From Methylotenera sp. (lineage in GTDB: Bacteria > Pseudomonadota > Gammaproteobacteria > Burkholderiales > Methylophilaceae), in the NCBI GenBank assembly GCA_040079935.1, contig JBEBJI010000006.1, positions 17,077 through 81,076 of the forward strand: a stretch of 64,000 bases of DNA. The letters run 5' to 3'. How positions within the stretch are numbered: the first letter of the stretch is position 1; each line of letters opens with the position of its first letter. The notes below the pieces were generated by a model. The model did no database searches and was not told the DNA's origin. It was given only the letters and a program-made list of their open reading frames with translations. The position numbers were made by a program, and so were the translations under genes. Shown here in pieces: positions 5,821-61,057 of the stretch.

Positions 5821-8800
5821 TCACAAATGTATGGCCATTGCAGCTTCAATATCCACATCAACAATGCGCGACACGCCAGATTCTTGCATAGTAACACCAA
5901 TGAGCTGTTGCGCCATTTCCATGGTGATTTTATTGTGCGAAACAAACAAAAATTGCGTTTTTTCGGACATTTTTTTTACCATATTGCAAAAACGCTCCGT
6001 GTTGCTGTCATCCAGCGGCGCATCTACTTCGTCCATCAAGCAGAATGGTGCTGGGTTTAGCTTAAACAGTGCGAACACCAACGCCAGCGCGGTTAACGCT
6101 TTTTCGCCGCCACTTAACAGTTGAATCGTCGTGTTCTTTTTGCCTGGCGGTTGCGCAAAAACTTGCAAACCAGTATCTAAAATCTCGTCGCCAAGCAATT
6201 CCAGCTTGCCTTGGCCGCCGCCAAACAGCGTGCTAAAAAGCTCGCCAAAATGTTGATTCACCGTGTTAAATGTTTGCATCAGCTTGTCGCGCGTTTCGCG
6301 GTCAATCTTCTTAATCGCATCTTCCAAGGTTTCAGTCGCCTGCACCAAATCCAACATCTGACTATCTAAATAAACTTTTCGTTCCGATTCTGTGGCCAGC
6401 TCTTGTATTGCGGCCATATTCACTGGACCGATTTCCTCAATTTGCTGCTGTAATTGGTTAGTTTTGCGCAATAATTCGCTAGTTTTTGCGTTCTCTGCCA
6501 AGCCCTGTGCCAACTCTTGCTCATTCACACCGTTTTCCTGCAAGCCAGCTTGGCATTGCTCAAAATGCAGACGCGCCTCTTGCTCGTTTAAGCGGCTTTG
6601 CTCTACGCTATCGCGCATTGGGTGCAATTGCTGCTCATTCTGCATCCGCACACGCTCAAGCGCTTGCATGACAGTTTCTGCGCCAGCCAAATGGTTGCGT
6701 GCTTCTGCCAGCGCGGTTTCGCGCAATTGCTTGGCGTTAATCGCCTCGCCAAGATTGGTTTTTAGGGTTTCCATCGGCGTCAGTTTCAAGGTTTGTTCGG
6801 CTTCTGATTGACGCAACAAAAATACAGTTTTTTCTTCACTATTTACATTAATTTTATTATTTAATTCATTGATATTATTATTAATTATTTTTGAATTAAA
6901 GTTTTCTTCTTGATATATTTTTTCTGCTTGTTGTATGGAATCGCGCAACGCTGAATAAACAACTTCGGCTTGTTGTTTAGCAGTTAAATCATCATTTTTA
7001 GCTAATTCTAGTGGCTCAAGAAGTGTCGAAACTGCTTGCAAAGCCGCTTGTTTATTAGCTTCTTCGTTGGTAAGTTGTGTTAATTTTGTGTTTGTTGCCG
7101 CAATCTCCGCCTTAATACTGGCTTCGCGTTCCAACGCTGATTGTTGTGCATGTTGCAAACGCGCCAATTCCAACTGTTGTTGATAATGCAAACTAGACGC
7201 AGTTTTAAGTTGCGTATTTTCCTGCTGTTGTTGCGCTCTCACCGCATGGATATTGGTCTCTGCAGTAGTTAAAGCTTCAGTTAATTTGCTTAAATTCTCT
7301 TGTAGTTTAGGTAAGTTTCTCTGCAATTTTTCTAGTTGTTGCTGACGTTCCAACACGCCATGCAAGCTAGAATTTTCGCCGTGATACGTAACGCTGTGAC
7401 GACTAAAAATGTCGCCTTGCGCATTCACCAAGATTTCACCTAAATTAAGATGATTAACAGCTTTTTCAGGAGCATCGCCGGGAGCCAATATCCATGAGCC
7501 TTCCAGCCAATCGGCTAAAATCGGTTTTAAATCTGCATCGCACTCTTTAATCACGCTTATCAATGGTGTTAAATGTGCGTTTTGTGAAGATTTAGCACTT
7601 TCAGAGGATGCCCTGTAGCCCAATACCAGCGCGGCTGGTGGACGTGCTCCTAAATCACCTTTTTCTGAAATCAGGGCATTCAATTTTGCGCCCAGTACCG
7701 CTTCCAGCGCCACGCTCCAAGTTTCATCAATTTTAATTTTTTGCCACAAACGTGCGTTATTTTTTAAACCCTTGCTGGAAAGCCAATCGCTCAGTTTTCC
7801 CTCAGAATTGACAGATTGTTGCAGTTTTTGAAGCGAATGAATCTCTGCATCGGCTTGATTTAACGCGCGTTGCGCTTGATTTTGCTGCTCGCGCAGTTCG
7901 CTAATTTTAGTTTGCAATGCTGTTTCGTCTACACGCTGTTTTTGCACTGCAGTTTCAATGTTAGAAACGGCCTGTGCAGCTTGTTTTAAAGCGTTTTCGC
8001 TGGTTTTTAGTTGCGCTGCATCTGGTAGCGACAAATTCGCCAAATCGGTCTGCAGGCCTGCAATGCGTTGTTTATTCTCGGCAATGCTTTGCGCGATAAA
8101 GTTGAGGTTGCTGGTTTCTATTTGAATGTGCTGATTCGCCTCCACCAGTGCATGCTGGCTGCTTTGCGCGCGTTCAGTCGCGGTTTGCAGTGCCTGCGCT
8201 TTTTCTGGCAACTTTTGTTTAAGCGCTTCTAATGCTGTTTTTGCTTGCAGTTCAGCCTGCGTTGCGGTTTCTAGTTCTGCTTGTTTTTGCACTAAACTCT
8301 GCTGAAAGTCCGCGCCAAAGCTAGCATTGCGCTCAAGTGATTGTGTGAGTTGCGCCAATTGTTGCGCCATGCGTTCGCGTGCCTCGGTGTTTTGTTTTAC
8401 TTGATTTTCTAAGTTAGAAACTTCCGCATTCGCCTCGTAATAAGCGGCTTGCGCGGTATTAATACCCTCGCTGGCCGCATAATGTGCTTGGCGACTTTGT
8501 TCAAGCTCAGCTTCGCTTTTGCGCAATTCTGCCGTTTGCGCTTCCAAGGCGTTCACCAATTTATCGACTTGCGCTTTGGTTTTCTCCCAATCTCGGCTGG
8601 CATCCCGTTTTTTTAATAACCAAAGTTGCCCATCCGCCAGCTTATAAGCGGCTTGTAGGGCATGAAATTGCTGCGTCACAACAGCTTGCGATTCTAATTT
8701 GGTGATTTGTTTTTGCAGCTCACGGCAAATATCTTCTACGCGCACCAAGTTTTCGCGCGTATCACGCAGGCGCAGTTCGGTTTCACGACGACGCTCTTTA

Positions 8801-9318
8801 TATTTGCTAATGCCCGCGGCTTCTTCTAAAAACACGCGCAGCTCTTCTGGCTTCGCTTCGACAATTCTGCCGATGGTATTTTGGCCGATAATCGCGTAGG
8901 CACGGCCACCCAAGCCAGTTCCCATGAATAAATCTGAAATGTCGCGACGTCTTACTGCGGTATTGTTGATGTAATAAGTTGAGCCTTTTTCGCGCTCAAT
9001 GACGCGTTTAACGCTAATCTCCGCGTATTGGCTCCATTCGCCAGCAGCGCCGCCGAGGCTGTTATCAAAAATAAGCTCTACAGAAGCTCTAGATATAGGT
9101 TTGCGATTGCTTGAACCATTAAAAATCACCGCATCCATCGCGTCTGCGCGCATTTCTTTGGCGGAAGATTCACCCAACACCCAGCGTACCGATTCCATGA
9201 CGTTGGATTTACCGCAACCATTTGGCCCCACAACGCCCACGCGCTGACCGTGCAGGTGAATGGTGGTGGGATCTACAAACGATTTAAAGCCGGCAAGTTT
9301 TAAGTGAGTTAAGCGCAA
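5821..9318 (-). CDS. smc: Chromosome segregation protein SMC
   Basis: GPNGCGKS Walker A, coiled coils and hinge, LSGGEK signature, LMDEVDAPLD. Confidence 0.99.
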   Translation of the reverse strand: MRLTHLKLAGFKSFVDPTTIHLHGQRVGVVGPNGCGKSNVMESVRWVLGESSAKEMRADAMDAVIFNGSSNRKPISRASVELIFDNSLGGAAGEWSQYAEISVKRVIEREKGSTYYINNTAVRRRDISDLFMGTGLGGRAYAIIGQNTIGRIVEAKPEELRVFLEEAAGISKYKERRRETELRLRDTRENLVRVEDICRELQKQITKLESQAVVTQQFHALQAAYKLADGQLWLLKKRDASRDWEKTKAQVDKLVNALEAQTAELRKSEAELEQSRQAHYAASEGINTAQAAYYEANAEVSNLENQVKQNTEARERMAQQLAQLTQSLERNASFGADFQQSLVQKQAELETATQAELQAKTALEALKQKLPEKAQALQTATERAQSSQHALVEANQHIQIETSNLNFIAQSIAENKQRIAGLQTDLANLSLPDAAQLKTSENALKQAAQAVSNIETAVQKQRVDETALQTKISELREQQNQAQRALNQADAEIHSLQKLQQSVNSEGKLSDWLSSKGLKNNARLWQKIKIDETWSVALEAVLGAKLNALISEKGDLGARPPAALVLGYRASSESAKSSQNAHLTPLISVIKECDADLKPILADWLEGSWILAPGDAPEKAVNHLNLGEILVNAQGDIFSRHSVTYHGENSSLHGVLERQQQLEKLQRNLPKLQENLSKLTEALTTAETNIHAVRAQQQQENTQLKTASSLHYQQQLELARLQHAQQSALEREASIKAEIAATNTKLTQLTNEEANKQAALQAVSTLLEPLELAKNDDLTAKQQAEVVYSALRDSIQQAEKIYQEENFNSKIINNNINELNNKINVNSEEKTVFLLRQSEAEQTLKLTPMETLKTNLGEAINAKQLRETALAEARNHLAGAETVMQALERVRMQNEQQLHPMRDSVEQSRLNEQEARLHFEQCQAGLQENGVNEQELAQGLAENAKTSELLRKTNQLQQQIEEIGPVNMAAIQELATESERKVYLDSQMLDLVQATETLEDAIKKIDRETRDKLMQTFNTVNQHFGELFSTLFGGGQGKLELLGDEILDTGLQVFAQPPGKKNTTIQLLSGGEKALTALALVFALFKLNPAPFCLMDEVDAPLDDSNTERFCNMVKKMSEKTQFLFVSHNKITMEMAQQLIGVTMQESGVSRIVDVDIEAAMAIHL
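7230..7268 (+). repeat. 39-bp repeat, core-intact copy inside smc
   Basis: ...CACC GCATGGATATT GGTCTCTGCAG (ETNIHAV). Confidence 0.65.
7473..7511 (-). repeat. 39-bp repeat, copy inside smc
   Basis: CATCGCCGGGAGCC AATATCCATGA GCCTTCCAGCCAAT (GSWILAPGDA). Confidence 0.65.
7608..7646 (-). repeat. 39-bp repeat, arm-intact copy inside smc
   Basis: ATGCCCTGTAGCCC AATACCAGCGC GGCTGG (AALVLGYRA). Confidence 0.6.
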
Positions 9319-21051: not shown

Positions 21052-21061
21052 TTTGACAAGC

Positions 21062-21100
21062 ATGCCCTGTAAGCCGCATGGATATTGGTCTGCAGAGCAT
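21062..21100 (+). repeat. 39-bp palindromic repeat, intergenic copy
   Basis: ATGCCCTGTAAGCC GCATGGATATT GGTCTGCAGAGCAT. Confidence 0.92.
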
Positions 21101-21146
21101 GTTAATTGGAAATGTAACGTCGTGTTTATTTAAGTGATGTAAAAAT

Positions 21147-31501: not shown

Positions 31502-31717
31502 TGTTGTCTATGGATCCAATGGTTGATATCGCCGAGCTTGATTTTCATAATCTTAGCTTTCTTGCGAAGGTTAGCCATCATTCCATTTCATTCGGGGATA
31601 GTCTGTACGCTGACACACATAGGCGACAAGCCAACTTTTAGTGAGCTAACTAAAGGGAAATAAAGATTTTAGTGCGCTTATTTCTTGTAAGAATCAACAC
31701 TGAAACTACAAAAATAG

Positions 31718-31756
31718 ATGCTCTGTAACCCAATATCCATGCGGGTTGCAGAGCAT
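31718..31756 (-). repeat. 39-bp palindromic repeat, best-formed intergenic copy
   Basis: ATGCTCTGTAACCC AATATCCATGC GGGTTGCAGAGCAT; arms 13/14 complementary; 20 bp past the pntB stop. Confidence 0.93.
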
Positions 31757-31775
31757 GTTATGGAATGATTTTAAA

Positions 31776-41039: not shown

Positions 41040-41100
41040 GTAGGACTTGCTGCGAGCAAAAAAGCAAAATAGTTAAAATGCTTTTAATTACTAAAAATAC

Positions 41101-41139
41101 ATGCCCTGCAAGGCGTATGGATATTGGCTTGCAGAGCAC
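41101..41139 (+). repeat. 39-bp palindromic repeat, intergenic copy between convergent genes
   Basis: ATGCCCTGCAAGGC GTATGGATATT GGCTTGCAGAGCAC. Confidence 0.92.
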
Positions 41140-41160
41140 TTTTTTTAAAGCCTAAGTTGC

Positions 41161-44928: not shown

Positions 44929-46818
44929 ATGCAGAATGTGAATGAACTCTTAGCCAAAGCAAAACAAGACGAGTTGCAAGGCAACATCCATGCAGCTCTT
45001 GGCGCATATCAACAAGTGCTTCTACAACATCCTGACGAGCTTAATTTGCACGCCATTTGTGGCAACTTGTGTGTGCAACTGCAGCAATTTGAAGAAGCTG
45101 CAGGTTATTTTCGGCGCATTTTTAGCGCAGATAATAAAAATCTCGACGTACGCAATGCCTTGTGTTTTTCACTACAAGCACTTGGAAATCAAGCACATAG
45201 CACAGGAAATTTTGCGTTAGCCGAGGCGTGCTTTCATGAGGCTACGCAGCATCAGCTTGGCAATGCAGTTTATTGGTACAACTTGGGCAATGCGCAGCGC
45301 GAGCTGGGCAAGCCCGAAAAAGCGCTAGCCAGCTTTACTCAATCACTAAAATTTGACGCAAACGATGCCGATGCACACAATAATTTAGGGAATGTGCAAC
45401 GCGAGCTTGGCCAATTAGACAAGGCAATTGCCAGCTACAAAATCGCCCTGCAGCTCAACCCCCGCCTGCATCACGCGCTGGCGCACTTGGTGCATCAAAA
45501 GCAACATATTTGCGATTGGGAAGATTTAGATGCGCAAATTTTGCAACTGCGAAACCTAGTCAAAATCGAGCCGAGCGCGCAGATTTCGCCGTTTGCTTTT
45601 CTCGCCATGTCAGGCACAACGGCGCAAGAGCAAAAACAATGCGCCAGTAATTATGCAAATAATACTTTAAAAGCATGGCCTGTAAGCCGCATGGATATTG
45701 GCTCGCAGGGCATAAAAAATAGAAACTATAAACTTAAAGTTGGTTATTTTTCGGCTGATTTTAGGCTGCATCCGCTGGCTTTTTTAATCACCGAGTTGAT
45801 AGAAAAACACGATCGAAACCAATTTAAAATCTTCGCCTACTCTTACGGAAAAAATGACAAAACTCCAACGCGCAAGCGGCTTGAGAAGGCATTTGACCAC
45901 TTTATCGACATCACGAATTTGAACGATGTTGAAGCCGTGAAAAAAATTCGCAACGACGAAATTGATATTTTGATTGATTTAACGGGTTACACGCAAAGCA
46001 GCCGCAGCGGTATCGTCGCGCTTAAACCAGCGCATATTCACATCAATTGGCTGGGCTTTCCCGGAACGATGGGCGAGCTAGCTGGCAAGCCACTATTTGA
46101 TTACTTGCTGGCCGATGAGAGTGTCGCGCCGAATGCTAAAGATTTTAGCGAAAAATTATTATATATACGTTGTTATCAACCGAACGATAGTATTCGGCCA
46201 ACTAGCAAGCCTGCAACCCGCATGGATATTGGGTTACAAGGCAATGATTTTGTATTTTGTTGCTTTAACCAAACTTTTAAAATTACCGCAGAAGTGTTTG
46301 CCGCGTGGATGCGCATTTTAAAACAAACGCCAAACGGCGTGCTTTGGCTGCTTGAATGTAACCAATGGGCAAAAGCCAATCTGCAAGCGGCCGCCGAGCG
46401 TGCAGGCGTTAATAAAAATCGCTTAATTTTTGCGCCACGCGTGCCAATCGCCGAACATTTAGCGCGCCATGTTCACGCGGATTTATTCCTCGACACCCTG
46501 CCCTACAATGCCCACACCACGGCTAGCGACGCGCTTTTTATGCGCTTGCCTCTGCTCACTTGCATGGGTGAAACGTTTGCCAGCCGCGTGGCGGCGAGCT
46601 TGTTGCAAAGCGTGAATATGCCTGAACTCATCACGCAGGATTTGGCAGAATACGAAACCAAAGCGCTAGATTTAGTGCAAAACCCTAAGAAATTAGCACA
46701 ATTAAAACTGAAATTAAATATCGAAATTGAAAAATCCAACTTATTTAATCCAACGCAATTTGCGCGCGATTTGGAGAGTATATTTTTAGATGTGGTTAAT
46801 AAACAAAAGACTATGTAA
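44929..46818 (+). CDS. TPR-containing GT41 (O-GlcNAc transferase/SPINDLY-like) glycosyltransferase
   Basis: TPRs, VGYFSADFRLHP, IDLTGYT, FCCFNQTFK, LFLDTLPYNAHTTASDAL. Confidence 0.92.
   Translation: MQNVNELLAKAKQDELQGNIHAALGAYQQVLLQHPDELNLHAICGNLCVQLQQFEEAAGYFRRIFSADNKNLDVRNALCFSLQALGNQAHSTGNFALAEACFHEATQHQLGNAVYWYNLGNAQRELGKPEKALASFTQSLKFDANDADAHNNLGNVQRELGQLDKAIASYKIALQLNPRLHHALAHLVHQKQHICDWEDLDAQILQLRNLVKIEPSAQISPFAFLAMSGTTAQEQKQCASNYANNTLKAWPVSRMDIGSQGIKNRNYKLKVGYFSADFRLHPLAFLITELIEKHDRNQFKIFAYSYGKNDKTPTRKRLEKAFDHFIDITNLNDVEAVKKIRNDEIDILIDLTGYTQSSRSGIVALKPAHIHINWLGFPGTMGELAGKPLFDYLLADESVAPNAKDFSEKLLYIRCYQPNDSIRPTSKPATRMDIGLQGNDFVFCCFNQTFKITAEVFAAWMRILKQTPNGVLWLLECNQWAKANLQAAAERAGVNKNRLIFAPRVPIAEHLARHVHADLFLDTLPYNAHTTASDALFMRLPLLTCMGETFASRVAASLLQSVNMPELITQDLAEYETKALDLVQNPKKLAQLKLKLNIEIEKSNLFNPTQFARDLESIFLDVVNKQKTM
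45675..45713 (+). repeat. 39-bp repeat, near-perfect copy inside GT41 gene
   Basis: ATGGCCTGTAAGCC GCATGGATATT GGCTCGCAGGGCAT (WPVSRMDIGSQG). Confidence 0.9.
46206..46244 (+). repeat. 39-bp repeat, second copy inside GT41 gene
   Basis: CAAGCCTGCAACCC GCATGGATATT GGGTTACAAGGCAA (KPATRMDIGLQG). Confidence 0.85.
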
Positions 46819-50084: not shown

Positions 50085-51017
50085 TTATTGTTTAATATAT
50101 TTATTATTTAATCTTACCGCAAGCGAGCTCACGCCAATCAAGGCGATGCCAATAATCACTAATGCAATAGGCCAGCCAACAGCATTAGCAAAATGCTCTG
50201 CCGTGTAATAACCGATGTAACCTAGCATCGACAGCGTGCCGACAATCAATAGCGCGCGGCTTCGCACATGCGTGCTCAAAAATATCAACAAGGCCGATAA
50301 GCCAAGGAAAGCAAGTTCTAGCGGCGAGTTTTTCACCGCATCAAACACCGACCACATTAAAATAACACCGCCGACAAAGTACCAAAATGACGCGATGGCG
50401 GCGTGTTTGGATTGCTGTAGCGCGTAGGCGATGCAGATGAGCGACGTGCCAATGATGAAACCATTAAAATTGCCGTCCCAATCCCAAATATCAAACAAAG
50501 TCCCCAGCCCAATTGCACCAAACAAAACTGTGCCAAAAGCAAGCACCGTAAGGCGTTTAGCCCAAAAAGTTGCCGCTTGCTGCACCAACATCACGCCCGC
50601 CATAAATAACAAGCCGTGACGCGCGTCACCGCCCGATGCGTATTCTTGCAGCATCACCAATATGCCTGTGGGTTGCAGCCACATGGCGCCTAAAAACAAA
50701 GGTGTAGCCGCCTTCTCGAAGCGCTTGTCAGTTAAACAGGTCAACGCCATGATAAACATCGCAAAACCTATGCCCAGCGTGACAATAACTCGCGCGGCAG
50801 AGCCGAAGTCATCCCAAAACATACTAATGAATACGCCGATGCCCGCGAATACGAATATGCCGCCAATATAAGCAAATAACTTAGAAAGTACGCTAGAAGA
50901 TGGCTTGGAAGCCAATATTGGTGCGGCCTGCAGGGCATGCTTAATTTCATCCAAGCTAATATTATTATTTTTAGCGAGTGAAATAATATCTTGCAATGCT
51001 TCTTCTTTTTGCGACAT
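50085..51017 (-). CDS. Polytopic membrane protein, DUF2157-like
   Basis: Short soluble N-terminus then about 9 TM helices, YIGGIFVFAG. Confidence 0.65.
   Translation of the reverse strand: MSQKEEALQDIISLAKNNNISLDEIKHALQAAPILASKPSSSVLSKLFAYIGGIFVFAGIGVFISMFWDDFGSAARVIVTLGIGFAMFIMALTCLTDKRFEKAATPLFLGAMWLQPTGILVMLQEYASGGDARHGLLFMAGVMLVQQAATFWAKRLTVLAFGTVLFGAIGLGTLFDIWDWDGNFNGFIIGTSLICIAYALQQSKHAAIASFWYFVGGVILMWSVFDAVKNSPLELAFLGLSALLIFLSTHVRSRALLIVGTLSMLGYIGYYTAEHFANAVGWPIALVIIGIALIGVSSLAVRLNNKYIKQ
50900..50938 (-). repeat. 39-bp repeat, copy inside DUF2157-like gene
   Basis: ATGGCTTGGAAGCC AATATTGGTGC GGCCTGCAGGGCAT (HALQAAPILASKP). Confidence 0.7.
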
Positions 51018-53381: not shown

Positions 53382-55178
53382 CTATTTACCCCGCATAAAC
53401 ATTTTGTCTAAATCGGTCATGGATACCTGAAACCAAGTCGGGCGGCCGTGATTACACATACCACTGCGTTCTGTCGCTTCCATATCGCGAAGCAAGGCGT
53501 TCATTTCGGGAATAGTGAGGCTACGATTCGCACGCACAGCCGCGTGGCAAGCCATGGTGCCTAATAACTCATTACGACGCTCCGTGAGCGCACGGCTGGC
53601 ACCGTATTCGCGTAAATCTTTCAATACGTCTCTGGCTAATTGCACGGCGTCTGCATTTTGTAGCATGGTGGGCACTGCGCGAACTGCTAATGTAGAAGGC
53701 GAAAGCACGGCAATATCAAACCCCAATTGCCGCAGATTATCCGCGCCGCTTGCCAGCTCTTCGTTAACGGCTGCCACTTCTAGCCTATCTGCATTAAAGC
53801 TCACGGGAATGAGCAATGGTTGCATACTAACCGCGTTATCATCGAGTGCGTTTTTAAGTTGCTCGTACATAATGCGCTCGTGTGCGGCGTGCATATCGAC
53901 CACCACCAAGCCTTGCGCGTTTTGTGCCAGCACGTATATGCCGTGAATTTGCGCAACGGCAAAGCCTAAAGGAAACGTATGTGTGTTTTCAGCATTTAAA
54001 ATGGCATCGCCAGCAACCGCATGGATATTGGCTTGCAGAGCATCTGTTTTCGCGATATTTTGAGTGCTGCCGAATAAAGTTTCATAAAAATTGGTGGGTT
54101 GCTGTGCGCCTAAATTGATTTGAGATTGATATTGCGGATAAGCTGCGAATGGATTATGTGCGGCTTGATTGGCCGTTACTGCATTTGAAACGCCCGTTGG
54201 CGTGGCCAAACTTTTATTCAGCGCGTGAAAAATAAAGCGGTGAATCGCTTGTCCATCGCGAAAACGCACCTCGGTTTTTGCTGGATGCACGTTCACATCG
54301 ACAAGATTAGGATCAAGCTCTAAAAACAGCACAAAAGCTGGGTGGCGGTCGTGATGCAGCACATCTTGATAGGCTTGGCGAATGGCGTGCGCAATGAGTT
54401 TGTCGCGCACAAAACGACCGTTAACATAGACATATTGCGTATCGCGGCTGTTGCGGTTAAACGTCGGTTTCGCTGCCATTCCCCACAATTTTAGGCCTGC
54501 AGCTTCTTCGCTAATTTCGATAGATTCGGCTGCAAATTCCGCGCCTAACACCTCGCTGAAGCGCTTATTTGCGTGACTCGCACTATAACGACTTAAAACG
54601 CGACCATTATGCTGTAGCGTAAACGTGACATCGGGGCGAGAAAGCGCGACGCGACTAAACGCTTCTTCGCAATGACCGAATTCGGTGGCTTCAGTTTTTA
54701 AAAACTTGCGCCTCGCCGGTGTGTTGAAATATAAATCATTGACTTCGACGATTGTGCCAACATCCAATCCAATTGGCTCGAGATGCGCTATTTCACTTCC
54801 TTCCGAGGCAATACGCCATGCGTGTTTAGTTTCAACTGCACGGCTTGAAATCTGCGTGCGCGAAACAGATGCTATACTCGCCAACGCCTCACCACGAAAA
54901 CCTAAACTGGCGACAGATTCCAAATCTTCCAGCGTGGCAATTTTACTCGTGGCATGGCGTGTCAGCGCCATAGCTAAGTCATCTTGTGCAATGCCGTTGC
55001 CGTTATCAGTGACTTTTAGTTGCTTAACTCCGCCTTGCAAAAGTGAAACTTGAATATCGCTAGAACCCGCGTCCAGGCTATTTTCCAGCAATTCTTTCAA
55101 TGCTGAGGCAGGCCGTTCCACGACCTCGCCAGCGGCGATTTGACTGATGAGTTGATTGGGTAAAAGTTGGATGCGCAT
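53382..55178 (-). CDS. mutL: DNA mismatch repair protein MutL
   Basis: IAAGEVVERP, KELLENSLDAG, GFRGEAL, DMHAAHERI, CNHGRP; true start MRIQLL at 55178. Confidence 0.98.
   Translation of the reverse strand: MRIQLLPNQLISQIAAGEVVERPASALKELLENSLDAGSSDIQVSLLQGGVKQLKVTDNGNGIAQDDLAMALTRHATSKIATLEDLESVASLGFRGEALASIASVSRTQISSRAVETKHAWRIASEGSEIAHLEPIGLDVGTIVEVNDLYFNTPARRKFLKTEATEFGHCEEAFSRVALSRPDVTFTLQHNGRVLSRYSASHANKRFSEVLGAEFAAESIEISEEAAGLKLWGMAAKPTFNRNSRDTQYVYVNGRFVRDKLIAHAIRQAYQDVLHHDRHPAFVLFLELDPNLVDVNVHPAKTEVRFRDGQAIHRFIFHALNKSLATPTGVSNAVTANQAAHNPFAAYPQYQSQINLGAQQPTNFYETLFGSTQNIAKTDALQANIHAVAGDAILNAENTHTFPLGFAVAQIHGIYVLAQNAQGLVVVDMHAAHERIMYEQLKNALDDNAVSMQPLLIPVSFNADRLEVAAVNEELASGADNLRQLGFDIAVLSPSTLAVRAVPTMLQNADAVQLARDVLKDLREYGASRALTERRNELLGTMACHAAVRANRSLTIPEMNALLRDMEATERSGMCNHGRPTWFQVSMTDLDKMFMRGK
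54005..54043 (+). repeat. 39-bp repeat, copy inside mutL linker
   Basis: CATCGCCAGCAACC GCATGGATATT GGCTTGCAGAGCAT (DALQANIHAVAGDA). Confidence 0.85.
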
Positions 55179-55251
55179 AGGCAGTATTCTACTTTGATTT
55201 CGCCCGAAAGGGCCTATTGGAAATGCCGCAATTTTGCGCTTAGAAAAGGTG

Positions 55252-56583
55252 CTAATCTTTGGCGATTTTGGTTTTTGCCAACGCAGGATTGCTGGCGAAA
55301 TACTTTTTAATACCATTTAAAATAGAATCTACCAATTTATCTTGGTAAGCCTCATCATTTAATCTTTTTTCTTCATCCGGGTTGCTGATAAATGCCGTCT
55401 CAACCAATATCGACGGGATATCTGGCGATTTTAATACTGCAAAACCCGCTTGTTCGACATGATTTTTATGTAATTTATTAATCTCACCAATATGCCCAAG
55501 CACGGCTTTGCCAAGTTTCAAACTATCGTTAATCGTCGCGGTTTGTGATAAATCTAACAAGGTTTTAGCTAGCACGGGATCGCGACCTCCAAGACTCACG
55601 CCCCCAATCAAATCCGATTCATTTTCCTTTTTCGCCAAATATCTAGCCGAGGCACTTGTCGCGCCTTTTTCTGACAGCGCGAACACCGAAGAGCCGCGCG
55701 CAGCGGGGTTGGTAAAAGCATCGGCGTGAATCGAGATGAACAAATCAGCCTTAAATTTACGCGCCTTGACTACGCGCGTACCAAGCGGCACAAAATAATC
55801 GCCATCGCGCGTTAACATGGCGCGCATATTGGGTTCTTCATCAATTTTTGCCTTTAGTTTTTTGGCAATATTTAATGTAATATCTTTCTCGCGACTACCA
55901 TTGGCACCGCGAGCACCTGGGTCTTCGCCACCGTGGCCAGCATCAATCGCGATGGTAATTAAACGCTCGTCATCTTTACTGGCTATAGTTGTTTCTTCTT
56001 TTTTATCGGCAGGTACAGCGTCTGGGGCTGGCTCAGCTGTTGCTTCTGAAGTTACTTCGTCTGGCCCGCCAGTGCTAGGCGGTAGCGGCTCTATCACTGG
56101 TTTTGTGGTATCTGTCTCGGTCGACTTTTTATCTTCACTACTTTTTTTACCTAGCATGGCCATTAATTCATCTTGCAGCGGGTAAATATCCAACACTAAT
56201 CGATGTTTATAATCACCAGCGGGGGCCAGCGCGAACAAGTTCGATTTCACCTCGCCTTTTAAATCCACCGCAATGCGCACTACGCCAGGTTTAAACTTGG
56301 CTACACGCACTTGTTTGATATACGGATCGCCCGACAAAATTTTGTCCGAAAGTGAAGTGAGCGCGTTGGTCAGCTCTAAATCTTCAATATCCAGTACCAA
56401 TCTATCAGGATTTTTTAAAATTATGAGCTGATATTTGATGGGCGCGGAAGATTCAAATGCAATACGCGTATATTCCTGCGCAGGCCATACGCGCGCAGCT
56501 GTGATGGTATTTGCGGCATAAGCAATTGAATTTATTAGAAATAAACTTGCTAACAGAAAGTAAGTTAAAACGCTTTTAAACAT
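55252..56583 (-). CDS. amiC: N-acetylmuramoyl-L-alanine amidase with AMIN domain
   Basis: AMIN N-terminus, DAGHGGEDPGA, SIHAD, SILVETAFISN. Confidence 0.93.
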   Translation of the reverse strand: MFKSVLTYFLLASLFLINSIAYAANTITAARVWPAQEYTRIAFESSAPIKYQLIILKNPDRLVLDIEDLELTNALTSLSDKILSGDPYIKQVRVAKFKPGVVRIAVDLKGEVKSNLFALAPAGDYKHRLVLDIYPLQDELMAMLGKKSSEDKKSTETDTTKPVIEPLPPSTGGPDEVTSEATAEPAPDAVPADKKEETTIASKDDERLITIAIDAGHGGEDPGARGANGSREKDITLNIAKKLKAKIDEEPNMRAMLTRDGDYFVPLGTRVVKARKFKADLFISIHADAFTNPAARGSSVFALSEKGATSASARYLAKKENESDLIGGVSLGGRDPVLAKTLLDLSQTATINDSLKLGKAVLGHIGEINKLHKNHVEQAGFAVLKSPDIPSILVETAFISNPDEEKRLNDEAYQDKLVDSILNGIKKYFASNPALAKTKIAKD

Positions 56584-57044
56584 GCTTTACCTAGTGATGA
56601 ACTTGCTGAAAATTGAATTTTTCGGCCATGTGTATTTTGGTCTAACTTAAACATTGAAAGTTTCACATGAATATCTGGCTCTGGCAACACGTGTGCGGCT
56701 TTTTCTGGCCATTCGATCAAGCAAATACTTTGCGGATTAAAATAATCTCTAAAGCCTGCCGCATCCCATTCCTCTTCGCTATTAAATCTATATAAATCAA
56801 AATGATAAACTTGATATCTCGAAACAGTATAAGGTTCAACCAATGTATATGTCGGGCTTTTAACTTTGCCAACATGGCCTAAACCATGCAAAACACCTCG
56901 TACAAAAGTGGTTTTTCCCGCGCCTAGGTCGCCATGCAAGTAAATATTTAACCCTGACACCAAAATACTAGAAAATCGCTCACCGCAAGCCAATGTTGCT
57001 GCTTCATTATCTAATGTTAATGTAATATCATTGCCGCTATGCAT
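56565..57044 (-). CDS. tsaE: t6A biosynthesis ATPase
   Basis: GDLGAGKT, KSPTYTLVE, HFDLYR, IEWP. Confidence 0.96.
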   Translation of the reverse strand: MHSGNDITLTLDNEAATLACGERFSSILVSGLNIYLHGDLGAGKTTFVRGVLHGLGHVGKVKSPTYTLVEPYTVSRYQVYHFDLYRFNSEEEWDAAGFRDYFNPQSICLIEWPEKAAHVLPEPDIHVKLSMFKLDQNTHGRKIQFSASSSLGKACLKAF

Positions 57045-58100
57045 TTAAACACTTCTAACGATTATGCGAGCCTTGCGGCTGACATCAAGCGCTGGGGCCG
57101 TGAGCTGGGCTTTGCGGAGATTGGCATCGCCGATATTGATTTGTCGCGCGCAGAAATTGAGCACCAAGCGTGGATTAAAAAAGGCTTTCATGGTGACATG
57201 GATTATATGGCAAAACATGGCACAAAACGCACGCGCCCTGCCGATTTAGTGCCAAATACTATGCGCGTGATTTCCGCCAGATTGGATTATTTGCCGCCCA
57301 AAGTGCGCGATAGCTGGAATGTAATGGAAAACGGTGAGCGAGCATTTATTTCGCGCTATGCGCTTGGCCGCGATTATCACAAAGTAATGCGCAATAAACT
57401 ACAAAAATTGTGCGATAAAATCTCAGAGAATGTAAAAGAATTTGAATTCAGAGTCTTTACAGATAGCGCGCCAGTGCTAGAAGTGGCGCTGGCAGAGAAA
57501 GCTGGCTTGGGTTGGCGCGGCAAACATACTTTACTGATTAATAAAGAACATGGCTCATGGTTTTTTCTGGGTGAAATTTACACCAATTTACCGTTGCCGA
57601 CAGATGAAAAAGCCTCTAACCATTGCGGCACGTGCTCGGCTTGCATCGACATCTGCCCTACTCATGCCATTACTGCGCCTTACGAAGTAGATGCGCGGCG
57701 CTGCATTTCATATTTAACTATCGAGCTGAAAGGCTCTATACCATTAGAGTTCAGACCATTAATAGGCAATAGAGTGTATGGCTGTGACGATTGCCAACTC
57801 GTATGCCCGTGGAATAAATTTGCAGAGATTACGCAAGAGCTAGATTTTAATGTGCGCAACGGTTTAGATGACATCAGCTTAATTGAATGTTTTGGCTGGA
57901 GTGAAGCAGAATTCAACCAAAAAATGGCGGGTAGTGCGATTTATAGAATCGGTTACGCGCAATGGCTACGCAATATCGCAGTAGGTTTAGGCAATGCGCC
58001 TAGCTCACCCGAAGTACTTAGCGCATTAAAAGCGCGCGCAAATGACAGCAGTGAGTTGCTGCGAGAGCACGTAGAATGGGCATTGCAGAGGCATCAATAA
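57039..58100 (+). CDS. queG: Epoxyqueuosine reductase
   Basis: YALGRDYH, FTDSAPVLE, CGTCSACIDICP, YGCDDCQLVCPWN. Confidence 0.97.
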   Translation: MHLNTSNDYASLAADIKRWGRELGFAEIGIADIDLSRAEIEHQAWIKKGFHGDMDYMAKHGTKRTRPADLVPNTMRVISARLDYLPPKVRDSWNVMENGERAFISRYALGRDYHKVMRNKLQKLCDKISENVKEFEFRVFTDSAPVLEVALAEKAGLGWRGKHTLLINKEHGSWFFLGEIYTNLPLPTDEKASNHCGTCSACIDICPTHAITAPYEVDARRCISYLTIELKGSIPLEFRPLIGNRVYGCDDCQLVCPWNKFAEITQELDFNVRNGLDDISLIECFGWSEAEFNQKMAGSAIYRIGYAQWLRNIAVGLGNAPSSPEVLSALKARANDSSELLREHVEWALQRHQ

Positions 58101-58101
58101 A

Positions 58102-58674
58102 CTACTCAACATTTTTCTGCAATTCCATTTCAGGCTCGAAAACTGGATTGCGCTCCAACACAATCCCAGTACCGTTGCTGCTTGAGCTTTCTTTGGCATC
58201 TAACATAGGTGCCTCGTTGCTTGGGGCGCTTTCAACGCCAATCTCTTCAGCTTTCACTGGGTAAATATCCAAGGCTAAGCGATGCTGATATCCGCCTGCA
58301 GGCTTGTAGGTGCTCAACTTTGGGGCGGCCGCAGTTTTTAAATCCACCACTACGCGTGTGACGCCTTGCTTAAAATTGGCCACTCGCACTTTTTTAATGT
58401 AAAAATCTTCTGGCAAAACATTGCTTGTAAGTGCTTTCAGCGATTGATTTATCGCGACGTTTTTCAAATCCAGCACCACGCGATCAGGTTTTTTAAGTAT
58501 CAGCATCGCATGCACAATAGCTTGGTCAGATTCAATAGTAATACGCGTATATTCGCTGACAGGCAATACGCTAGCAGCAATAACCGTTGCAGCGTAGCTA
58601 GATATATTTGCTAATGAAAAAGCGCTAACAAACAGAAATTTGGCAAAAAAATTATTCACTCGCGAAACATACAA
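58102..58674 (-). CDS. Stand-alone AMIN-domain protein
   Basis: Signal peptide; YTRITIES, PDRVVLDL, RVVVDLK, HRLALDIYP, parallel to the AmiC N-terminus. Confidence 0.85.
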   Translation of the reverse strand: MYVSRVNNFFAKFLFVSAFSLANISSYAATVIAASVLPVSEYTRITIESDQAIVHAMLILKKPDRVVLDLKNVAINQSLKALTSNVLPEDFYIKKVRVANFKQGVTRVVVDLKTAAAPKLSTYKPAGGYQHRLALDIYPVKAEEIGVESAPSNEAPMLDAKESSSSNGTGIVLERNPVFEPEMELQKNVE

Positions 58675-58679
58675 ACTAA

Positions 58680-59612
58680 TTAAGCTAGAGTCAACTTTGC
58701 CGAACTTAACATGGCAGCCCCCAACATACCTGCGGTATCATTGGTAGTGGAAATTTTAACGGTGATTTTGTCGCGCAATACGGGGATTAAATCGGCTTCA
58801 AACCTTGCATCGAAAGCGCTTTTCATCAAAAGCCAAGCGCCACTCATGCCGCCACCAATCACAACGGTTTGCGCATCCACCACCTTCAAAATGCTCGCAA
58901 GCGCTTGTGCTAAAGCATTTGCAGCCAGTTCGTAAGCCTCGATTGCCGCTTTATCACCTTTATGTGCAAGTTCAGCAATTTGATGTGCGGTAAGTTGTTT
59001 TTGTATGGCGTTAAAATAGCTAATGGCGACGCCAGTGGCCGAAGCATAGGCTTCCATGCAGCCTTTGTTGCCACAACCACATTGTCGGCCGTTTGATTCA
59101 ACGATGATGTGCCCAACTTCCATCGCACAGCCATGTTGTCCGCTAACTATTTTGCTATCTAAAATTAAACCTCCGCCCACGCCCGTGCCAAGTCCCATGT
59201 AAATCAGCCCGCCTTCCGGCTTGCCTGCTAAACTATATTCACCAAAAGCAGCTGCATTGGCATCGTTTTCTAACGCAACTGGTAAATTGATGGCTTTCGA
59301 CAATTGCGCGCTCAAATCAAAATCTTTCAAATGCGGCAAATTGGGCGATTGCATTATTTTTTTTGTTGTTGGGTCAATAAAACCTGGGAAACCGACACCA
59401 ACTGCTTGAATTGCGAGATATTTTTTTTGCAGCGCGTGAATTTCTGTAAATAAAATTCTTATTACTTCTACAGGCGCAGTTTCAAAAGTAAGCGCCCGGC
59501 AGACCCCACCAATATTGACTTCCAGGCGTGTTATTTCGACTAATTTTTTGCCTTCAAACACACCAAATCGAATATTAGTGCCGCCAACATCGATGCCAAT
59601 CGTTAATGCCAC
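58680..59612 (-). CDS. ROK-family sugar kinase (glucokinase-like)
   Basis: GIDVGGT, ENDANAAA, GTGVGGG, EVGH, CGCGNKGCME. Confidence 0.92.
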   Translation of the reverse strand: MALTIGIDVGGTNIRFGVFEGKKLVEITRLEVNIGGVCRALTFETAPVEVIRILFTEIHALQKKYLAIQAVGVGFPGFIDPTTKKIMQSPNLPHLKDFDLSAQLSKAINLPVALENDANAAAFGEYSLAGKPEGGLIYMGLGTGVGGGLILDSKIVSGQHGCAMEVGHIIVESNGRQCGCGNKGCMEAYASATGVAISYFNAIQKQLTAHQIAELAHKGDKAAIEAYELAANALAQALASILKVVDAQTVVIGGGMSGAWLLMKSAFDARFEADLIPVLRDKITVKISTTNDTAGMLGAAMLSSAKLTLA

Positions 59613-61057
59613 TAATGTACCCTATTCGACTGCTGAATAGCCTGTTTAATGCCATCAATGTGTTCTGTTTTTAGCGCATCCCAATCAAATCGCCATTGCC
59701 AATTGCCGCCCATGGTGCCAGGAACATTCATGCGATGCTTCGCATCCAAGCCCAAAATGTCCTGCATAGGAATAATGGCAATATTGGCTTTTGTTTCAAG
59801 CGCCAATTGCACCAAGGCTTGCGGCATATTAGGTTGCGCGCTTTTTAGCACGGCATGCAGATGATTTTTTGCGCGTTCATCCAAGGCTTGATACCAACCC
59901 AGCGTGGTGTCATTATCGTGCGTACCTGTGTAAACCACACTATTTTCCTGAATATTCTGTGGAAGATACGGATTTTTATCATCGCCGCCAAAGGCAAATT
60001 GTAAGATTTTCATGCCTGGCAGATTATATTTTTCGCGTAAAGCATCAACTTCTGTAGTAATAATGCCCAAATCTTCTGCAATCAAACTTAAATGCGGAAA
60101 ATGTCCTTTAATAGTTTTTAATAAAGCATCGCCAGGAGCCAATACCCATGAGCCTTGCACGGCAGTCTCAGAGGTAGCTGGAACTTCCCAAGCAGATTCT
60201 AAACCGCGAAAATGGTCAATGCGCAACATGTCGAACATACGATTTTGCGTGCGCATACGCCCTAGCCACCAGCTAAACCCATTGCGCTGCATGGCGGGCC
60301 AGTTGTAATGCGGGTTGCCCCAGCGCTGGCCAGTCTCGCTAAAATAATCAGGTGGTACGCCCGCCACCACTTGCATATTTTTTGCAGAATCCAGCTTAAA
60401 TAAATGCGGTTTTGCCCACACATCAGCGCTGTCGAACGCCACAAAGAGTGGAATATCGCCAAACATCGCAATGTTGCGCTTATTTGCATATTTTTTAAGC
60501 GCTTGCCATTGCCGAAAAAACAAAAACTGCGTGAATTTAATCACGCCAATTTCATGCGCGTGGCGTTTTTTCACTTTCGCCATTACGGCTGCTTGTTTAT
60601 TTTTGTAGGCAGTTGGCCAAGTGTTCCAACTGGTATGTTTAAACTTTTCGCGCAGCACCAAAAAGAGTGCGAAATCGCCCAGCCAAGCCAAGTTTTCGCG
60701 GCAAAAATGGACGAACTCTTGTTGTAATTTTAAATTTTTATGTTGTTTATAATGTACATAGGCATCGCCAAGAGCCGCATGGATATTACCTTGCAGAGCA
60801 TCTCGTTTTATTAGTTTTTGCTCAACTAATTGCTCTAAACTAATAAATTTAGGATTGCCCGCATGGGCGCTTAAACATTGATATGGAGAACCATCATCGT
60901 GCGGCATATTCAGCGGCAAAGTTTGCCAAACGTGCGCACCAATGTCAGCTAAAAAATCGACAAACTTTTGCGCATCCGCACCAAAATCACCCGCTGGTAG
61001 CGAGCTGACGTGCAGTAAAACGCCTGCGCAACGTGCTTGATTTGAATTTTGTGACAT
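59612..61057 (-). CDS. malQ: 4-alpha-glucanotransferase (amylomaltase)
   Basis: GVPPDYFSETGQRWGNP, RIDHFRG, AEDLG, YTGTHDNDT. Confidence 0.96.
   Translation of the reverse strand: MSQNSNQARCAGVLLHVSSLPAGDFGADAQKFVDFLADIGAHVWQTLPLNMPHDDGSPYQCLSAHAGNPKFISLEQLVEQKLIKRDALQGNIHAALGDAYVHYKQHKNLKLQQEFVHFCRENLAWLGDFALFLVLREKFKHTSWNTWPTAYKNKQAAVMAKVKKRHAHEIGVIKFTQFLFFRQWQALKKYANKRNIAMFGDIPLFVAFDSADVWAKPHLFKLDSAKNMQVVAGVPPDYFSETGQRWGNPHYNWPAMQRNGFSWWLGRMRTQNRMFDMLRIDHFRGLESAWEVPATSETAVQGSWVLAPGDALLKTIKGHFPHLSLIAEDLGIITTEVDALREKYNLPGMKILQFAFGGDDKNPYLPQNIQENSVVYTGTHDNDTTLGWYQALDERAKNHLHAVLKSAQPNMPQALVQLALETKANIAIIPMQDILGLDAKHRMNVPGTMGGNWQWRFDWDALKTEHIDGIKQAIQQSNRVH
60127..60165 (-). repeat. 39-bp repeat, copy inside malQ
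   Basis: CATCGCCAGGAGCC AATACCCATGA GCCTTGCACGGCAG (VQGSWVLAPGDA). Confidence 0.6.
60763..60801 (+). repeat. 39-bp repeat, second copy inside malQ
   Basis: CATCGCCAAGAGCC GCATGGATATT ACCTTGCAGAGCAT (DALQGNIHAALGDA). Confidence 0.82.

Follow-up and report, generated by a model that had tools for sequence, protein, structure and literature searches.

Dispersed copies of one palindromic repeat probably account for a stretch shared by mutL and malQ in Methylotenera

Two genes for unrelated proteins, mutL and malQ, lie in a 64,000-nucleotide stretch of a Methylotenera genome (the window; C67:17077-81076) and share 43 bases, most probably because each holds a same-frame copy of one palindromic repeat. 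The two stretches would then be independent intragenic copies of a dispersed family. The fairly high confidence placed in this account covers the whole of it: copies that arose in place, a 3′ arm used only in coding sequence, and a genome-wide drive toward the repeat. The family came to light when repeats were sought in the window and the entire assembly (2.415 Mb, 81 contigs, 44.1% GC) was scanned, and bit scores refer to a profile made from 264 copies. The genes and copies at the center of the argument are as follows.

53382-55316, minus strand: mutL, with HATPase, DNA_mis_repair and MutL_C domains.
54003-54045, minus strand: repeat copy in mutL, GGCATCGCCAGCAACCGCATGGATATTGGCTTGCAGAGCATCT, read directly from the sequence; the match is on the antisense strand of the gene; 37.2 bits; variant 3′ arm GCT GGC GAT GCC on the sense strand.
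59612-61057, minus strand: malQ, a GH77 4-alpha-glucanotransferase from its translation and domain matches.
60761-60803, minus strand: malQ copy 1, GGCATCGCCAAGAGCCGCATGGATATTACCTTGCAGAGCATCT, read directly from the sequence; the match is on the antisense strand of the gene; 28.7 bits; variant 3′ arm CTT GGC GAT GCC.
60125-60166, minus strand: malQ copy 2, weaker and with its core in the other orientation; 19.5 bits; peptide TAVQGSWVLAPGDA; mirrored variant arm CCT GGC GAT GCT.

The true start of mutL is likely an internal methionine at residue 47. Its repeat copy sits in the interdomain linker, between DNA_mis_repair (residues 255-370) and MutL_C (454-600).

The match itself, first noticed in the initial annotation, holds on re-reading both stretches: 38 of 43 nucleotides are identical, with five mismatches, and shuffles of the window give an expectation of 0 for matches of this kind. 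The shared 14-residue peptide is likewise recovered by translation, as DALQANIHAVAGDA at MutL residues 424-437 and DALQGNIHAALGDA at MalQ residues 85-98. Over the 42-nt model of the repeat, the two copies agree with each other at 37/42 positions and with the consensus at only 32/42 (mutL) and 31/42 (malQ), so that the pair does stand closer to each other than to the consensus, as had been claimed. This similarity places them among the closest 0.34% of copy pairs in the genome. The mutL copy nonetheless has five closer or equal neighbors elsewhere in the genome, the nearest at 40/42 (C27:40367-40408, for example) and 39/42, and malQ ranks sixth.

The repeat is a palindrome of about 39-42 nt. 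It consists of an A-rich flank, the arm ATGCCCTGCAAGC, a nearly invariant asymmetric core CGCATGGATATTGG, the arm GCTTGCAGGGCAT and a T-rich flank; the short form of the palindrome reads ATGCCCTGCAAGC-CGCATGGATATTGG-CTTGCAGGGCAT. In layout, two inverted arms of 13 nt enclose one asymmetric core of 14 nt. At E<=1e-3 the profile search of the assembly returns 345 copies; relaxing the threshold to E<=0.1 raises this to 418, or about 175 copies per Mb. By position, 234 of 417 copies are inside open reading frames (ORFs; 56%), 167 are intergenic and 16 are at gene edges. Nearly all of the host ORFs (199/212) have a homologue in the congener G023 and are therefore real genes. G023, a complete genome of 2,126,250 bp without the exact core and with only five weak model matches at E<0.1, served as the element-free reference.

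High copy numbers of the repeat are confined to a sub-clade of a single genus. The exact core has 123 copies in this genome and 0-61 in 24 congeners, seven of which have none, and it is absent from each of the 16 further genera that were sampled from the order.

Intragenic copies are strongly biased in frame. The consensus is open in all six frames, and the 234 intragenic copies use these 134/40/34/17/5/4 times. The commonest frame, xALQANIHAA.., is that of mutL and malQ; the second reads ..RMDIGLQG and the third ALQAAWILA... The ranking tracks codon scores only roughly. Copies are found on both strands, with an orientation relative to GC skew of 136:143, and a polar function of the Chi or KOPS kind was rejected on this absence of orientation bias.

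A minor second core type, CGCACC(A/G)GTATTGG, occurs in the window at 50898-50939 and on contigs C5, C7, C71 and C79. It encodes ..ANTGA.. where the main core gives ..ANIHA.., and is often paired with the arm GGCGATGC (e.g. ANTGAASGDA).

Whether such copies were inserted or written in place can be read from the length of the host proteins. For the 203 intragenic copies with a G023 orthologue, the net length difference was scored within 12 residues on either side. It is 0 at 107 sites and scatters around 0 at the rest; a gain of 14 residues is seen at one site, and no peak at +13/+14 was found among the 203. In MutL, the linker segment from FYETLFG to FPLGF is 31 residues long here and also in G001, G017, G019 and G023, which lack the element, and in several named metagenome-assembled genomes (MAGs). 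The site of malQ copy 1 is a variable, indel-rich segment of which this genome has the shortest version; its orthologues carry homologous, partly matching sequences (DALQANRHAMLAKAY, GLQANREAALGDSY, VKANIHALAGMAY) of the LQANRHAxLxKAY type. At malQ copy 2 (GSWVLAPGDA) no orthologue has an indel, and W..APG(D/N) is kept even in orthologues at 43-45% identity, so that the arm of this copy consists of ancestral codons. Orthologues in the MutL and MalQ alignments show graded, partial states of the word.

Since there is no gain of 13-14 residues and the MutL and MalQ segments are the same length or shorter, these comparisons show that the intragenic copies were written over pre-existing codons in a sub-clade of Methylotenera, by substitutions and sometimes small indels. 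They bear directly on a mobile origin, in which a small palindromic element (RPE-like, a miniature inverted-repeat transposable element (MITE), or a repetitive extragenic palindrome (REP) or REPIN moved by a REP-associated tyrosine transposase, RAYT) would have inserted in frame and added 14 residues to MutL and MalQ. The six open frames and a length of about 42 nt, or 14 codons, fit such an element, and the genome does encode one RAYT with two copies of the repeat within 1 kb. That RAYT is, however, directly flanked by a different, GTAG-type REP hairpin of about six copies, element load varies among species independently of RAYT presence, and 56% of the repeat copies are intragenic. In-frame insertion was rejected on the genome-wide length comparison together with the MutL and MalQ alignments; the mobile-element reading is largely refuted and now very improbable. 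A REP/RAYT system was rejected as well, the lone RAYT having its own GTAG REP and showing no co-occurrence with the element: across 24 congeners no correlation between RAYT and element load was found, with the incompleteness of MAGs as a caveat.

The RAYT gene (C58:26920-27605, outside the window; 175 residues, NF047646 at 196 bits) and the GTAG-type hairpins that flank it, GTAGGGCGCAATA..TATTGCGCC, about six in the genome and none in G023, look like a separate, tiny REP/RAYT system. Other observations on length and linkers belong beside these. At 25 of the 203 sites the host is 4-5 residues longer than its G023 orthologue, which whole-element insertion does not account for. Four MalQ orthologues (L017, L020, L021 and L022, from G016, G020, G007 and G015) carry 20-40 extra residues just upstream of the element site; one such segment, LQPHGLSPQNIPAEAGYSC, is near-identical in two species, and here a different small repeat may truly have been inserted in frame. 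In many MutL linkers of Methylotenera and Methylophilus (L174, L185, L193, L228 and others), a conserved motif, (E)RQFASPVCYA(D/E)EF, occupies the position where the clade of this genome has the palindromic word.

Further intragenic and intergenic copies in the window are listed here.

7471-7512, minus strand: copy in the 1165-residue ORF 5821-9318, with the mirrored variant arm; peptide DWLEGSWILAPGDA, of the same length as in the G023 orthologue (LVDWLQGTYLLGSDDDPE).
44967-45008, plus strand: weak copy at the N-terminus of a TPR/GT41 protein; 15.5 bits, 82% over 44 nt; peptide DELQGNIHAALGAY, with LQGNIHAALG in common with MalQ and the arm GGC GCA TA, not GGC GAT GC.
21061-21102, plus strand: canonical intergenic copy, illustrating how the consensus hairpin lies shortly downstream of a gene; 41.7 bits.
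31716-31757, minus strand: canonical intergenic copy; 40.7 bits.
41100-41141, plus strand: canonical intergenic copy; 38.1 bits.

Intergenic copies are concentrated in convergent gaps (0.45 per gap, against 0.047 per divergent gap), at a median of 15.5 nt from the 3′ end of a gene, and are A-rich on one flank and T-rich on the other. Their mean minimum free energy is -16.2 kcal/mol, compared with -12.3 for intragenic copies and -10.7 for those with the variant arm. As a GC-rich hairpin followed by a run of T just 3′ of genes, they have the form of intrinsic terminators in silico. Intergenic copies are thus predicted to be strong hairpins, placed like bidirectional terminators. Intragenic copies retain the 5′ arm and the core with a weakened stem. 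In mutL and malQ the variant arm abolishes the predicted hairpin: the consensus folds at -29.9 kcal/mol, the mutL copy at -10.7 and the malQ copy at -9.8.

This variant arm is what sets the mutL and malQ copies apart. Among intragenic copies the most frequent distal left arm is GCATCGCCA, with 14/234, and five further intragenic copies have its mirror GGCGATGC as their right arm. Neither is carried by any of the 167 intergenic copies (Fisher p=4e-5), and the two never occur together in a single copy. On the sense strand, the variant makes up the 3′ arm in 18 of 19 copies, irrespective of core orientation. There it reads CTGGCGATGCY, or GGC GAT GCN in codons, for Gly-Asp-Ala. Of the 168 copies that share the arm frame, 17 have GDA as their distal tripeptide, which makes it the most frequent, ahead of the canonical RAS (10) and of GAS (7). 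By eye, the variant is the canonical arm shifted one base toward the core with three substitutions.

The codons of this arm are fixed. Gly-Asp is encoded by GGC GAT in 20/20 copies, against 36% expected from codon usage (p=1e-9), and the next codon is GCT or GCC in 16/17 (p=1e-5). The choice is therefore fixed at the DNA level, and pure protein-level selection for Gly-Asp-Ala was rejected because synonymous codons are fixed. The 10-mer GCATCGCCAG has 48 occurrences in this genome, compared with 8 in G023. Chance overlap of this common coding 10-mer with the core was also rejected, since the genome has only about 34 background copies, whereas 14 stand at a single fixed offset. In this arm frame, the canonical arm encodes Cys/Ser-Arg-Ala through rare codons (AGG is 4% and AGA 10% of Arg, TCC is 6% of Ser, and Cys makes up 0.8% of residues). 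The variant replaces the rare-codon Cys-Arg by Gly and Asp in their major codons, GGC (51%) and GAT (70%).

A broader protein-level explanation would make the shared peptide a selected motif of 14 residues, such as a helix or an interaction tag, reached convergently in MutL and MalQ. The use of one frame by 134 proteins, and the rank of GDA as the commonest C-terminal tripeptide, are what such a motif would predict. Yet the same DNA word stands 167 times between genes, the peptide falls in a disordered linker or a variable segment of unrelated hosts, and five other frames are used. Synonymous positions are also fixed, as in the GGC GAT codons and at the malQ site, where CAC has changed to CAT, toward the consensus. 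Of all the explanations weighed here, a selected peptide is the least credible.

The variant is thus shown to be a second preferred state of the 3′ arm, confined to coding sequence. This was one of three origins proposed in the initial annotation, and the further copies that it proposed to search for do exist genome-wide. The arm is also present, at the correct spacing, in seven other element-bearing species and in no congener that lacks the core. Most of the variant-arm copies in those seven species are orthologous to element sites here, and some such sites hold the canonical arm in one of the species compared but the variant arm in another (C33:22592, C18:1813). At MutL, C27:31503 and C42:22128 the outgroup has no GD; at MalQ copy 2, C5:51843 (GDAEPF) and C13:4125 (RGDV) it already encodes it.

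A second proposed origin, gene conversion between the mutL and malQ copies, is not supported by the comparison with orthologues. The mutL arm is shared with orthologues as GCTTCTGGCGATGCT in two species and GCTTCTGGCGACGCT in one, and a MAG of 91% identity has AAGDA at this place; the malQ arm is shared with one congener. Both arms are therefore old, and the mutL copy has closer neighbors than malQ. The third, a sub-family by descent, has weak support at most. Over the rest of the element, variant copies agree at 21.3 of 28 nt and matched controls at 20.4, with 0.7% of controls reaching 21.3. The variant arm nevertheless joins at least eight different inner arms and both core orientations, and alternates with the canonical arm at orthologous sites. 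On this evidence, the variant arm appears not to stem from recent conversion between mutL and malQ, and to form a lineage only weakly if at all. Relatives read CCAATAGGGACGCG or CCAATAGGCACGCG at orthologous MutL and MalQ sites, but species "dialects" of the core were rejected because these words are not repeated in any genome, with 0-2 copies each.

What wrote the copies in place is a separate question. The favored model is a sequence-specific drive, acting across the genome, that would favor and fix mutations improving the match to the word. Its most likely form would be biased uptake and recombination of word-carrying DNA, as with uptake signal sequences (USS) and DNA uptake sequences (DUS). 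The form of the 3′ arm would in turn reflect selection on protein and codons, together with selection against intragenic hairpins.

The distribution of copies among genes is part of this argument. ORFs with a G023 homologue hold 1.28 copies per 10 kb and those without one hold 0.30 (4.3-fold, p=1.5e-11). Copy density peaks in genes of 60-70% identity and falls to 0.23 per 10 kb in genes of at least 90% identity. This pattern of density and conservation is paralleled for uptake signal sequences (PMC2817400). In its frame bias, its depletion outside the core genome and its terminator-like intergenic copies, the genomic signature appears to resemble that of DNA uptake sequences. A drive is favored because of the in-place origin, the graded states of orthologues, the frame bias, the depletion in non-core genes, the trough in conserved genes, the terminator-like copies and the lack of strand polarity.

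The same in-place pattern could be produced by short-patch ectopic gene conversion among dispersed copies, with no bias in uptake. Arm variants would then spread as linked blocks, possibly between copies like those of mutL and malQ. Conversion would suit the slight excess of likeness among variant copies in the core and other arm, a core variant (C at position 25) that is seen in 5/13 variant-arm copies but in 13% of the remainder, and the homogeneity of the entire family within the genome. It accords poorly with an arm combined with both core orientations and many inner arms, with mutL and malQ arms already present in orthologous copies elsewhere, and with orthologue states that are graded and partial where block replacement would be expected. 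Conversion by RecA-dependent recombination needs 20-30 nt of homology, which new sites would lack. Short-patch conversion among copies is a live alternative for the drive, though an unlikely one.

If the drive takes the form of biased uptake, the word could be a hitherto unrecognised kind of signal for DNA uptake or recombination, carried by an environmental methylotroph that belongs to neither Neisseriaceae nor Pasteurellaceae. Its machinery would accept two arm states of a 40-nt word, one an intergenic terminator and the other codon-friendly, hairpin-breaking and found only within genes, and the word would have been written into more than 200 proteins, MutL and MalQ included. This identification is put forward tentatively, as a possibility with the odds somewhat against it.

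A number of points weigh against the drive and its reading as an uptake signal. Known uptake signals do not take the form of a 40-nt palindrome with a single asymmetric core, and literature searches found no paper linking Methylotenera or Methylophilaceae to natural transformation or uptake sequences. ComEC is encoded here, but it is near-universal in the order, including relatives free of the element, and so does not discriminate. The choice of exactly GGCGATGCY is not explained by the favored model, and the small excess likeness of variant copies elsewhere in the element may reflect some copying between copies. A sole exception to the orientation of the variant arm, C38:23208-23249, has GCATCGCCAG on the sense 5′ side and in another frame (IASTRMDIG); this argues for a preference for the arm word as DNA and not only as Gly-Asp-Ala. 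Finally, gene calls come from a crude in-house method of ORFs and codon scores, and ancestral states rest mainly on one outgroup genome. As a separate observation, the ComEC gene holds a copy of the word near its own N-terminus (C70:131042-131083, PALQAAWILAPS, residue 22).

Should the drive be real, Methylotenera would become a new free-living model for an uptake-signal-like sequence and a proteome evolving together. About 170 proteins would then carry the peptide xALQ(A/G)(NIH/AWI)... without a protein-level reason. The coding-only arm would show a way for such a drive to coexist with translation while terminators are kept out of genes. For annotation, short peptide or DNA identities between unrelated proteins in this clade should not be taken as evidence of domain sharing or recent transfer.

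Several known repeat systems share features with this one. The RPE is a palindromic repeat found inside unrelated genes, open in frame, that adds a shared peptide to its hosts (PMC10969869). Like RPE and in-frame MITEs, the Methylotenera repeat is palindromic, intragenic and in frame, with a peptide common to unrelated proteins. RPE, however, are insertions of about 150 bp that lengthen the host, whereas the word here, of about 42 nt, replaces codons with no net change in length; its hosts do not exceed their orthologues by the length of the element. REP, BIME and REPIN are also short imperfect palindromes in hundreds of copies, and their intergenic members lie just after genes, where they can terminate or stabilise. 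They differ in being extragenic by definition, in having a 5′ GTAG and in flanking RAYT genes; the present repeat is mostly intragenic, has no GTAG, and neither directly flanks the RAYT gene nor follows RAYT presence across species. HIP1 of cyanobacteria, GCGATCGC, is a palindromic word that is over-represented in coding regions and maintained in place, not by transposition. It is an 8-mer, and the element here is five times longer, with an asymmetric core and terminator-like intergenic copies.

The USS of Pasteurellaceae and the DUS of Neisseriaceae differ from the Methylotenera word in size, with a core of 9-12 nt against 39-42 nt and inverted arms here, and their density is several-fold above the one seen in this genome. 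Neither is known to have an alternative arm restricted to coding sequence. The likenesses are broader. In all of these systems, hundreds of copies lie on both strands with no replication-strand bias, and many are in genes, over codons and with no change in length. Frame bias is strong, accompanied here by preferred codons in the variant arm, and copies are depleted both in genes that lack homologues in relatives and in those that are highly conserved. Intergenic copies stand in terminator-like hairpins, and the word is lineage-specific.

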